Shown: piece after piece, positions 46,474-48,120 of the stretch
Layout of the letters: the number at the start of each line of letters is the position of its first letter
How positions within the stretch are numbered: position 1 is the stretch's first letter
Position numbers and translations under genes: made by a program
The notes under the pieces: model-generated
The model's database searches: none
What the model was told of the DNA's origin: nothing
Seen by the model: the letters and a program-made list of their open reading frames with translations, nothing else
NCBI RefSeq assembly: GCF_030028105.1
Contig: NC_092402.1
Coordinates: 69,179,110-69,243,109, forward strand
Direction of reading: 5' to 3'
DNA from: Mobula birostris
Taxonomy: Eukaryota
Length of the DNA stretch: 64,000 nt

Positions 46474-48120
46474 ATGTCGGAGAACGACACTGATAATTTA
46501 GTCAACAGCGGCAAATATGAGCCTGGCAAGAGCAAACGGAATGTTTGCCGAGACTTTCTGCGCAATGTCTGCACCCGTGGTAAGAATTGCAGGTACTTCC
46601 ACCCCGACAATATTGAGGCCTCCGACCTCGCCGACATAAGGAATGACACTGATAATATAGTCAACATTGCTAACGATGAAGCTGGTAAAAACAAACAGAA
46701 CATTTGCCGAGACTTTCTGCGCAATATCTGCAGCCGTGGTAAGAATTGCAGGTACTTCCATCCAGATGACATTGAGGCTTCAGACCTTGCTGACATAAGG
46801 AATGACATTGATAATTTAGTCAACGTTGGCAATGATGAGGCTGGCAAAAACAAACTGAACATTTGCCGAGACTTTCTGCGCAATCTCTGCAATCGTGGTA
46901 AGAATTGCAGATATTTTCACCCAGATGATATTGAGGTATCCAACCATGCTGACCTAAGTGATGATGCTGATAACTTAGTCAATAATAGCAAATATGATGC
47001 TAGCAAGAACAAACGGAATGTTTGTCGTGATTTTCTGCGCAATGTCTGCAGTCGTGGTAAGAATTGCAGGTACTTTCACCCAGACAATGTTGAAGCCTAT
47101 GATGTAGGTGATATGCGGCATGAGTCTATATTTTGTCAGTACTTTCAGAATAGTAAGTGTACCCGTGAAAACTGTACGTTCATTCACGGGACAAAGGCTG
47201 AAGAAAATTATTACAATAAAACAGGTAAGCTTCCTGCCCACTTGCAAAAGACAGTGGCTGTGACATTTGGGCTCTCGCCCTCCAACTTGCCCCTTATTAC
47301 AAAGGAAGTCCCATTCTGCCGTGACTTTCTCAAAGGCAAATGTCGAAGAGGATCCAAGTGTAAATTTCAGCACTTGAAACGTGATGACAATGATAAGAAA
47401 AGCACAGAAAAAGTGTCGCAAAATAGAGAGGCTTCCCCTGAGATCTGCAGATATGACCGTTTGGATGACCTTTATGAGACTGAGAAATGTGCTTATGACC
47501 AAAATCCAAAAAGGAAAAGAATGGAGGGCTTGCGGTTTGAAGTATTTGATTACAGTACACCCAGTCTGCGGCCAGTTGAAAGGAGTTTCCTGGAGGAGGA
47601 AAACCATATGCTTAGAAAGCGCAATGAAGAGCTCAAGAAGCAGGTATCAAGCCTAATGATTACAAATGAGGTACTTCTGAAACAAAATGCTGATCTCCGC
47701 AAACAAGTGAAGCTAGGAATCCTGACCACAGGAACTGACCCAACACAGTCACCAGCTATGCACAATGTTACCAATTATAATCATAGCATAGTGGAGACTC
47801 ATACCACCCTCAGCAACCAATCCTTGAGATCACAGCCTATTTCTCATCAAGAATTGATAGCGCAAGCGAGAGCTCACAATGCTTTGTGTTCTGAAGCTAC
47901 GTCCCAAAGTCCACCCCACCTTAGTGCTGCTCTCTCTACACCTTATGCCCAAGGGATGGCTTCACCAGTTTCAGTGGCACCAATTGCCATTTCAGTTGCA
48001 CCAGTGGCAGTAACGCAATCACTTCCTGGAATTGCCATGAGTTATACCACCACTCAAATGGTCAGTTATCCAAATGCATCACAGAGTATGAGGTTCCTCT
48101 GTCGTGCGGAGGAAAGTTGA
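46474..48120 (+). CDS. ZC3H10-like paralog, 548 aa, six CCCH zinc fingers (finger 1 quadruplicated)
   Basis: Intact ORF; 4 x CRDFLRNxCxRGKNCRYFHPD, then CQYFQNSKCTRENCTFIHG and CRDFLKGKCRRGSKCKFQH; PKRKR; coiled coil LEEENHMLRKRNEELKKQVSSLMITNEVLL; APVAV and YPNASQSMR tail collinear with ZC3H10; acceptor CTTTTTCTTTTACAG with the exon starting at 46426. Confidence 0.93.
   Translation: MSENDTDNLVNSGKYEPGKSKRNVCRDFLRNVCTRGKNCRYFHPDNIEASDLADIRNDTDNIVNIANDEAGKNKQNICRDFLRNICSRGKNCRYFHPDDIEASDLADIRNDIDNLVNVGNDEAGKNKLNICRDFLRNLCNRGKNCRYFHPDDIEVSNHADLSDDADNLVNNSKYDASKNKRNVCRDFLRNVCSRGKNCRYFHPDNVEAYDVGDMRHESIFCQYFQNSKCTRENCTFIHGTKAEENYYNKTGKLPAHLQKTVAVTFGLSPSNLPLITKEVPFCRDFLKGKCRRGSKCKFQHLKRDDNDKKSTEKVSQNREASPEICRYDRLDDLYETEKCAYDQNPKRKRMEGLRFEVFDYSTPSLRPVERSFLEEENHMLRKRNEELKKQVSSLMITNEVLLKQNADLRKQVKLGILTTGTDPTQSPAMHNVTNYNHSIVETHTTLSNQSLRSQPISHQELIAQARAHNALCSEATSQSPPHLSAALSTPYAQGMASPVSVAPIAISVAPVAVTQSLPGIAMSYTTTQMVSYPNASQSMRFLCRAEES
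46483..47118 (+). repeat. Coding tandem repeat, 4 x 159 bp (53 aa)
   Basis: Units start at 46483, 46642, 46801 and 46960; CGTGGTAAGAATTGCAG is invariant in all four. Confidence 0.95.

Follow-up and report, generated by a model that had tools for sequence, protein, structure and literature searches.

ZC3H10 is a poorly understood CCCH zinc-finger protein, and the literature is split both on whether it acts on RNA or on DNA and on the domain that does the binding. Its RNA motif reportedly goes back to Ray 2013 and Treiber 2017 as the original papers. In the accessible text of three reports, fingers 1 and 2 bind RNA with the motif GCAGCG(C) or AGUGCAG (PMC6911170, PMC6321451, PMC11612968). DNA binding by the mammalian protein is assigned to the basic-zipper region without the fingers in one of these (PMC6911170), and to the fingers together with R89 in the available part of another paper (PMC13375009); the accessible portion of PMC7879490 gives further support for DNA binding.

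The window analysed here, a 64,000-nucleotide stretch of the Mobula birostris genome (NC_092402.1, 69,179,110 to 69,243,109), holds a paralog that shares with ZC3H10 the sequences of fingers 1-2-3, the helix after finger 2, the NLS, the zipper, a low-complexity C-terminus and a single coding exon. It differs from ZC3H10 in that the finger-1 module is present four times, finger 5 is altered, a zipper core position is changed from V to N, the C-terminal end is new and the gene is a member of a tandem cluster. Among the matches, no ZC3H10-type protein with such an array was seen outside elasmobranchs. Four fingers were seen in two ZC3H10-type cases, a bird model whose finger 1-2 repeat is perfect (P0364), which is probably an artefact, and an unnamed protein that has a single additional finger (P0245). 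Repeated CCCH arrays with a spacing of about 50 aa are common in unrelated eukaryotic proteins, which cautions against over-rating the array, as does the fact that no phenotype is attached to the paralog.

The first fingers of the muscleblind (MBNL) proteins are of the C-x7-C-x6-C-x3-H type. Among solved structures, the three best sequence matches of the paralog are all fingers of the muscleblind type, with MBNL1 first (E 2e-8), and CPSF4/CPSF30 fingers are the next-best solved relatives. MBNL1-3 have in common with the paralog a C-x7-C-x4-C-x3-H second finger and several fingers for spaced GC steps, but MBNL fingers pack as compact pairs, whereas the repeats of the paralog stand 34 residues apart and are accompanied by a zipper. 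In bZIP factors the basic region has an invariant Asn and is continuous with the zipper (N-x7-R/K-x9-L). The paralog resembles them in Leu at d, Asn at a and E-R g/e pairs, and in having paralogs that differ at a core position. It differs in basic-region geometry, with a 23-residue, proline-containing gap between basic motif and zipper and a Pfam bZIP_1 score of 14.9 bits against a cut-off of 27.6, and its dimer is only predicted. The other elasmobranch ZC3H10-like paralogs (a 280-aa three-finger, a 226-aa two-finger and a 310-aa two-finger form) are of the same family and have the zipper, and the 280-aa and 226-aa forms share the cluster and the acceptor and 5' UTR context of the six-finger gene. 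They have, however, lost rather than gained fingers or the C-terminus, and only the 280-aa form has Asn at a2.

Structure and transcription of the six-finger gene

The sequence-only reading had described a quadruplicated 53-aa finger-1 module, six fingers and 24 zinc ligands, and the ORF, TRF and alignment agree with this. TRF placed a tandem repeat with a 159-bp period at 46482-47084, with 3.8 copies, 83% matches and no indels. Pairwise identity of the four units is 74-86% at the DNA level and 60-81% at the protein level, and each pair shows 9-16 synonymous codon differences. All 24 ligands are present across the six motifs, which read C-x7-C-x5-C-x3-H at aa 25, 78, 131, 184 and 282 and C-x7-C-x4-C-x3-H at aa 221. 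Fingers 4-6 have the characteristic ZC3H10 order and spacing (7-5-3, 7-4-3, 7-5-3), with three extra finger-1 copies ahead of them, and a ZC3H10-type basic NLS is followed by the EEEN...NEVLLxQN coiled coil with its heptad pattern. Pfam CCCH families score above cut-off in the product, and the best database matches are ZC3H10 proteins, among which the paralog nests in quick trees built from ZC3H10-type rows with SH-aLRT support only. Alignment of fingers 4-6, basic motif, zipper and C-terminus with the canonical three-finger ZC3H10 of the window gives 53% identity, and the identity to Latimeria ZC3H10 is 71% for the canonical copy and 46% for the paralog. The basic PKRKR motif and the coiled coil had been called intact. 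Both are so in this ray gene, but PKRKR is the ray form, KRRR being found in the parent and most shark orthologs, and the coiled coil carries a fixed core change (V384N). A C-x-(F/Y)-x-H pattern occurs in all six fingers (46546-47373). In the available text of PMC12275196, H96 of human ZC3H10 is a CARNMT1 histidine-methylation target on peptide arrays.

Table 1. Features of the six-finger gene, its canonical neighbour and related copies (positions in the window unless a contig or locus is named)
Feature	Position	Strand	Remarks
CDS of six-finger ZC3H10 paralog	46474..48120	+	548 aa, without stops, within one exon
Four 159-bp (53-aa) modules	46477-46635, 46636-46794, 46795-46953, 46954-47112	+	From TRF and alignment
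Finger-1-type CCCH fingers, one per module	46546-46602, 46705-46761, 46864-46920, 47023-47079	+	
Finger 5 (ZC3H10 finger 2)	47134..47187	+	Fixed changes H222Q, D223Y, K227S, E228K; F218S just upstream
Finger 6 (ZC3H10 finger 3)	47317..47373	+	
Basic motif PKRKR	47506..47520	+	Matches region shown to be NLS in human ZC3H10 (accessible text of PMC13375009)
Leucine-zipper coiled coil, aa 373-415	47590..47718	+	Core Asn384 codon at 47623-47625; Val in parent
Paralog 5' non-coding exon 1	40165..40192	+	Extent of contigs, true start may lie beyond; joint 40192-41059 GT..AG
Paralog 5' non-coding exon 2	41059..41119	+	
Paralog 5' non-coding exon 3	42258..42425	+	
Paralog exon 4	46426..51573	+	48-nt 5' UTR, CDS, 3' UTR of 3.4 kb or more (contigs do not fix its end)
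CpG-rich promoter region with both first exons	39501..41000	.	
Canonical ZC3H10 exon 1	39806..40067	-	Joined to its coding exon by one contig of related organism
Canonical three-finger ZC3H10 CDS	24496..25698	-	400 aa
Decayed ZC3H10-like copy	C38 ~69276574 (L012; position 97465 of extended window)		A single finger 1 still recognisable, followed by frameshifts and stops
Two-finger truncated paralog (fingers 1 and 3)	L004:1492-2181, C38:69305035 onward		226 aa
Three-finger truncated paralog	L002:1495-2334, C38:69323766 onward		280 aa, without C-terminal region
GC-rich two-finger ZC3H10-like gene	L005:1492-2424, contig C22 (another chromosome)		310 aa; Ala at zipper a3

Contigs from two runs of one study (X1 and X4) cover the coding exon and the 3' UTR with 0 differences and skip three GT..AG introns, and a contig from a second study (X6, a related organism) shows two of the three splice joints. 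The source runs are not on record as RNA, their type being guessed and one being rated 'probably DNA'. The contigs were taken as transcripts because intron-skipping joints are what RNA gives and because the genome contains no second six-finger copy. In run X9, the paralog CDS was without cover at 90% likeness. Between X6 and the window, 31 of 32 substitutions were listed; four of those lie in the CDS, three of the four being synonymous. The paralog is a spliced, expressed, working gene. The repeat had been judged unlikely to be an assembly artefact, and this is borne out by the 0-difference contigs over the coding exon and by the same repeat in the orthologs of other species.

The head-to-head arrangement with the canonical gene, in line with the co-promoted parent proposed earlier, was confirmed. 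The first exons adjoin in the CpG-rich region as an inverted duplicate, in which an 81% inverted repeat between 39817-39873 and 40118-40175 reaches both splice donors. The contig 5' ends of the two genes are about 100 bp apart (40165 and 40067), and both transcripts occur in the same runs. The shared promoter region would keep the paralog co-expressed with its parent. No NRF1, ETS, GC-box or YY1 motif was found in the promoter region. The mirror symmetry of the first exons would allow a 5' overlap of the two transcripts (at about 39925-40067), although contigs cannot show starts. Two short upstream ORFs of 7 and 21 codons lie in the spliced 5' UTR of the paralog (42258-42425 plus 46426-46473). 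Autoregulation through GCAGCGC in the paralog's own mRNA was ruled out, with 0 sites in 5.4 kb. Read depth in the window is dominated by repeats at 9725-10591, 27026-27517, 30686-33306, 36500-38300, 43750-44110 and 61085-61462, which we take, from their sequence features, to be LINE reverse-transcriptase fragments and SINE-like elements.

Conservation and origin of the tandem cluster

Orthologs with 85-99% identity were found in at least 17 named sharks and rays, 15 of them with four modules (the main cluster has 19 members, 15 of which were listed). The Pristis ortholog has three modules and that of Hemiscyllium is represented by split models only (180 and 335 aa); four units are not obligatory. 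The proteins of the window and of Mobula hypostoma differ by one residue. A HMMER scan of 1.84 billion representatives gave one cluster at E 2e-146, and the next match, at 3e-55, was an unrelated multi-CCCH protein. Protein searches with length and candidate limits gave no chimaera six-finger ortholog among their matches; three ZC3H10-type genes (canonical, 215 aa and 248 aa) were seen in Callorhinchus. The gene, which had been regarded as lineage-specific, is thus common to sharks and rays, none being seen outside elasmobranchs among the matches. Nor is it wholly novel, as the orthologs are annotated in RefSeq as 'ZC3H10-like'. The open-access literature on ZC3H10, its paralogs and evolution, or cartilaginous-fish CCCH duplication yielded no description of it, and ZC3H10 is absent from the supplement text of the shark sex-chromosome papers. 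It is apparently undescribed and built from familiar processes, namely inverted and tandem duplication, finger multiplication and a change of zipper specificity. What is new here is the cluster of four intact genes and a pseudogene, its probable X location and the Val-to-Asn zipper core (N384).

To seven tested orthologs, the identity is 87-96% for the paralog and 95-99.5% for the canonical protein, the paralog evolving faster than its parent in all seven species. Compared with nine sharks, the fingers of the paralog are 89-95%, the zipper 93.5% and the inter-repeat linkers 77-85% identical. A dN/dS near 1 would have counted against a functional gene, and the values between units are far below it (0.12-0.30; 0.09 for the pooled finger cores and 0.22 for the linkers). 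In the comparison of paralogs dN/dS is 0.21-0.26, with dS near saturation. In the quick trees the paralog stem has 0.49-0.55 changes per column and the crown branches are short. The paralog changed fast once on its stem and was then constrained, and the strong divergence noted earlier applies to the stem only, the gene being strongly conserved among living sharks and rays. Twelve of 12 orthologs carry the same eighteen fixed differences at sites that are otherwise conserved, and seven of these fall within or next to finger 5 (aa 215-228). The fixed changes in finger 5 and in the zipper fit a new function, so that neofunctionalisation, as suggested by the sequence-only reading, appears plausible. 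The nearest unit in other species is that of the same position alone in 180/182 comparisons for unit 1 and in 129/182, 168/182 and 180/182 for units 2-4. Since the units are position-specific across species, the quadruplication would be older than the shark-ray split. Strong concerted evolution of the units was ruled out, the within-species identity being only 0.2-1.9 points above that between species.

The locus is a tandem cluster of four intact ZC3H10-type genes and one pseudogene. Downstream of the paralog and on the same strand follow the decayed copy, the two-finger and the three-finger truncated gene, and their acceptor and 5' UTR surroundings are related. Both truncated genes are conserved throughout the elasmobranchs. 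The two-finger protein is 98-99% identical between ray and shark, more conserved than canonical ZC3H10, and has an ortholog in Callorhinchus. The three-finger protein shares the zipper Asn a2 and the D-to-Y change of finger 2 with the six-finger gene, and its 5' UTR has GCAGCGC just past the acceptor. The gene on C22 is possibly an old genome-duplication copy. The plus-strand copies of the cluster form one clade (SH-aLRT 93-96) in quick trees, from one of which 18 rows were dropped. The closest sister of the six-finger gene is the truncated three-finger paralog (SH-aLRT 89-91, on long branches), and a clade uniting the six-finger gene with the canonical ZC3H10 of elasmobranchs is rejected by the AU test (p=0.019, again with long branches involved). 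The neighbouring canonical gene, earlier regarded as the parent copy, is therefore not the nearest relative; it groups with chimaera canonical ZC3H10. The six-finger paralog groups with the truncated paralogs and is not a one-to-one ortholog of vertebrate ZC3H10, and duplicated genes of this kind are discarded by strict one-to-one ortholog screens. Callorhinchus has a third, divergent ZC3H10-like protein (P0327, 248 aa, two fingers), whose position within the cluster clade is uncertain. In Rhinoraja longicauda, a single contig carries two canonical ZC3H10 models that are almost identical (P0011 and P0013).

We infer one old inverted duplication and a subsequent tandem expansion. The inverted duplication would have copied ZC3H10 together with its first exon, and the inverted copy would have seeded the same-strand cluster, a process under way before chimaeras split off; the promoter-proximal copy would then have quadruplicated finger 1 in the shark-ray ancestor. 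A retrocopy origin was ruled out by the introns, the duplicated exon 1 and the shared acceptor context of the paralog. Sharks and rays thus offer a natural domain-shuffling series, with finger 1 multiplied by four, finger 2 lost, the C-terminus lost and the zipper core switched. The series has persisted at least since sharks and rays parted about 265 million years ago (date cited in the available text of bioRxiv 2025.02.26.637739), and makes finger-1 specificity and zipper dimerisation directly testable.

Probable location on the elasmobranch X

The cluster lies very probably on the ancient elasmobranch X. The contig C38 has a sparse Hox cluster at 53.1-53.3 Mb (53114394-53320552), whose homeodomains we take to be HoxC12, 10, 9, 8 and 6, and a second, HoxB-like cluster at 8299341-8537425; a PDB search did not tell the Hox clusters apart. 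The first coding exon of a MIP-family aquaporin was found at 1038-1427 (+) of the window, in a CpG-rich stretch, and human MIP presumably lies in the corresponding part of human chromosome 12. This synteny fits the ancestral elasmobranch X block, a HoxC-bearing chromosome homologous to human 12. In the accessible parts of the sources, homology is reported between the shark X and part of human chromosome 12 (PMC10620051), and human ZC3H10 is placed in 12q13 (PMC6262175). The contigs with cluster genes measure 16.4 (Pristis), 28.8 (Carcharodon) and 73.08 Mb (M. hypostoma), and 103,180,129 bp in Narcine. The available text of bioRxiv 2025.02.26.637739 gives an X size range of 16.4-28.8 Mb and an upper size of 73.0 Mb for the myliobatiform X1/X2, and the Narcine contig matches exactly the size of the electric ray chromosome with the ancestral X block in the same source. 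The presence of HoxC-like and HoxB-like clusters on one contig is what a fused myliobatiform X1 would show. At C38 53320385, the homeobox is strongly diverged.

Elasmobranch X chromosomes are without full dosage compensation (PMC12318234), and X-linked shark genes show raised Ka/Ks (PMC10620051), as stated in the accessible text of each. The cluster would add a set of lineage-specific regulators to a chromosome whose gene dose is believed to determine sex; any role of the cluster in sex is speculation.

Predicted nucleic-acid binding and dimer partners

According to the accessible text of PMC4176163 and PMC9780971, each MBNL finger reads a GC step via aromatic and Arg residues; the former also gives the tandem-pair layout without a zipper, from which the paralog, with six fingers and a zipper, departs. 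The repeated fingers keep CRDF..C.R and an aromatic residue before the last ligand, and each would in this way retain the Arg/Asp/aromatic/Arg/aromatic pattern of MBNL-type GC-step pockets. Their C2-C3 loop reads (T/S/N)RGKN against KRGKR in the parent, a loss of two basic residues that could weaken RNA binding, and they gained a basic lead-in (K-S/N-K) where the parent is acidic. Finger 5 has its fixed changes at otherwise near-invariant sites (H222Q, D223Y), while the equivalents of human R89 and S126 are kept. Since finger 5 lost near-invariant residues, the motif likely differs from the parent's GCAGCG/AGUGCAG. AlphaFold gave a mean pLDDT of 53 and a pTM of 0.23 for the full model, and 67 and 0.35 for the core, with separate fingers and low-confidence linkers, which suggests that the 34-residue linkers are flexible. 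In these low-confidence models no compact antiparallel finger pair was predicted; the best Foldseek match was MBNL1 at E 0.14, with none at E<=0.001, and the best VIA Z was 2.7. With probably flexible linkers of this length, binding would gain avidity and not a longer rigid site. Multivalent binding of repeated RNA motifs is plausible, and we infer avidity from flexibly tethered fingers together with a shifted specificity. RNA need not be the relevant ligand, because mammalian ZC3H10 is also reported to bind DNA.

In the zipper alignment, 229 of 242 proteins were anchored. An Asn stands at position a2 in 21/21 proteins of the six-finger family and in 15/15 of the truncated three-finger type, 36 rows that go back to one inherited event and are not independent, and the position is hydrophobic in 193/193 others. 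In an enlarged set of 295, one of 259 others, an unnamed protein, has Asn at a2; the 248-aa chimaera paralog has Ile. In the available part of PMC4335062, Asn opposite Val, Ile or Leu at a-a' strongly destabilises bZIP dimers, most away from the ends. The heterodimer with the parent is disfavoured because Asn384 would face Val226 in the central heptad, by rules borrowed from true bZIPs, and Asn384 would insulate the zipper from Val-type family members. The paralog is predicted, by this analogy, to pair with itself or with its truncated three-finger sister and not with canonical ZC3H10. No direct evidence of ZC3H10 dimerisation was found in the accessible parts of the ZC3H10 literature. The predicted complex of the six-finger and canonical zippers scored 0.61 against 0.53 for the control, which was counted neither way.

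The reading that we tentatively prefer, with a probability of about 0.45, is that the conserved shark-ray paralog would be a nuclear protein whose many fingers bind GC-containing RNA motifs that are repeated or spaced, and would pair with itself or with the truncated sister. Heterodimerisation with co-expressed canonical ZC3H10, which would redirect or dampen the latter, had been suggested by the sequence-only reading on account of the shared coiled coil. The head-to-head layout with its neighbouring contig ends, the presence of both transcripts in the same runs and the otherwise near-identical zippers (same d and g/e residues, three matching a-position Asn) speak for it, but the Asn384-Val226 mismatch is typical of bZIP non-binders and the Asn is kept in 21/21 family sequences, and we regard it as rather unlikely. 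The paralog could instead be mainly a DNA-binding transcription regulator, its extra fingers giving avidity for clustered promoter motifs (ISRE-like TTTC or UCP1-type). Repression of interferon-stimulated promoters by human ZC3H10 requires all three fingers, the NLS, the coiled coil and R89 (PMC13375009, accessible text), and the R89 and S126 equivalents are kept. This is nevertheless unlikely, given the proline-containing separation of basic motif and zipper, the bZIP_1 score below cut-off, the disagreement between the available texts of two mammalian papers (PMC6911170, PMC13375009) on the DNA-binding domain and the fact that the nearest solved fingers bind RNA.

An extension of the RNA-binding reading, in our estimate quite unlikely as a whole, is that elasmobranchs made of single-copy ZC3H10 an X-linked, combinatorial bZIP-like family, which the one core residue would divide into two non-mixing dimer classes, Val (canonical and two-finger) and Asn (six-finger and truncated three-finger), and in which a 12-finger GC-RNA reader dimer would be tuned by the truncated sister and, for want of chromosome-wide dosage compensation on the X, its level would differ by sex. 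It is improbable that the paralog has the same targets as its parent and is mostly redundant with it or divides tissues with it, its repeat fixed by drift and only tolerated: its faster evolution in 7/7 species, the three units of Pristis and the raised Ka/Ks of X-linked shark genes would suit this, but the 18 fixed differences with seven around finger 5, the strongly constrained repeat finger cores and the four units in 15 of 17 named species argue against it. For an assembly artefact or pseudogene, the split models of Hemiscyllium are the one point in favour, and this explanation is virtually out of the question, being refuted by identical spliced contigs, orthologs in 17 named species and dN/dS far below 1. 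Some CPSF30 fingers bind protein partners. That the repeated fingers do so instead of binding nucleic acid is very unlikely; CPSF4/CPSF30 fingers are the next-best solved relatives and two loop basic residues were lost, but the aromatic and Arg pattern is kept and the basic lead-in was gained where the parent is acidic.
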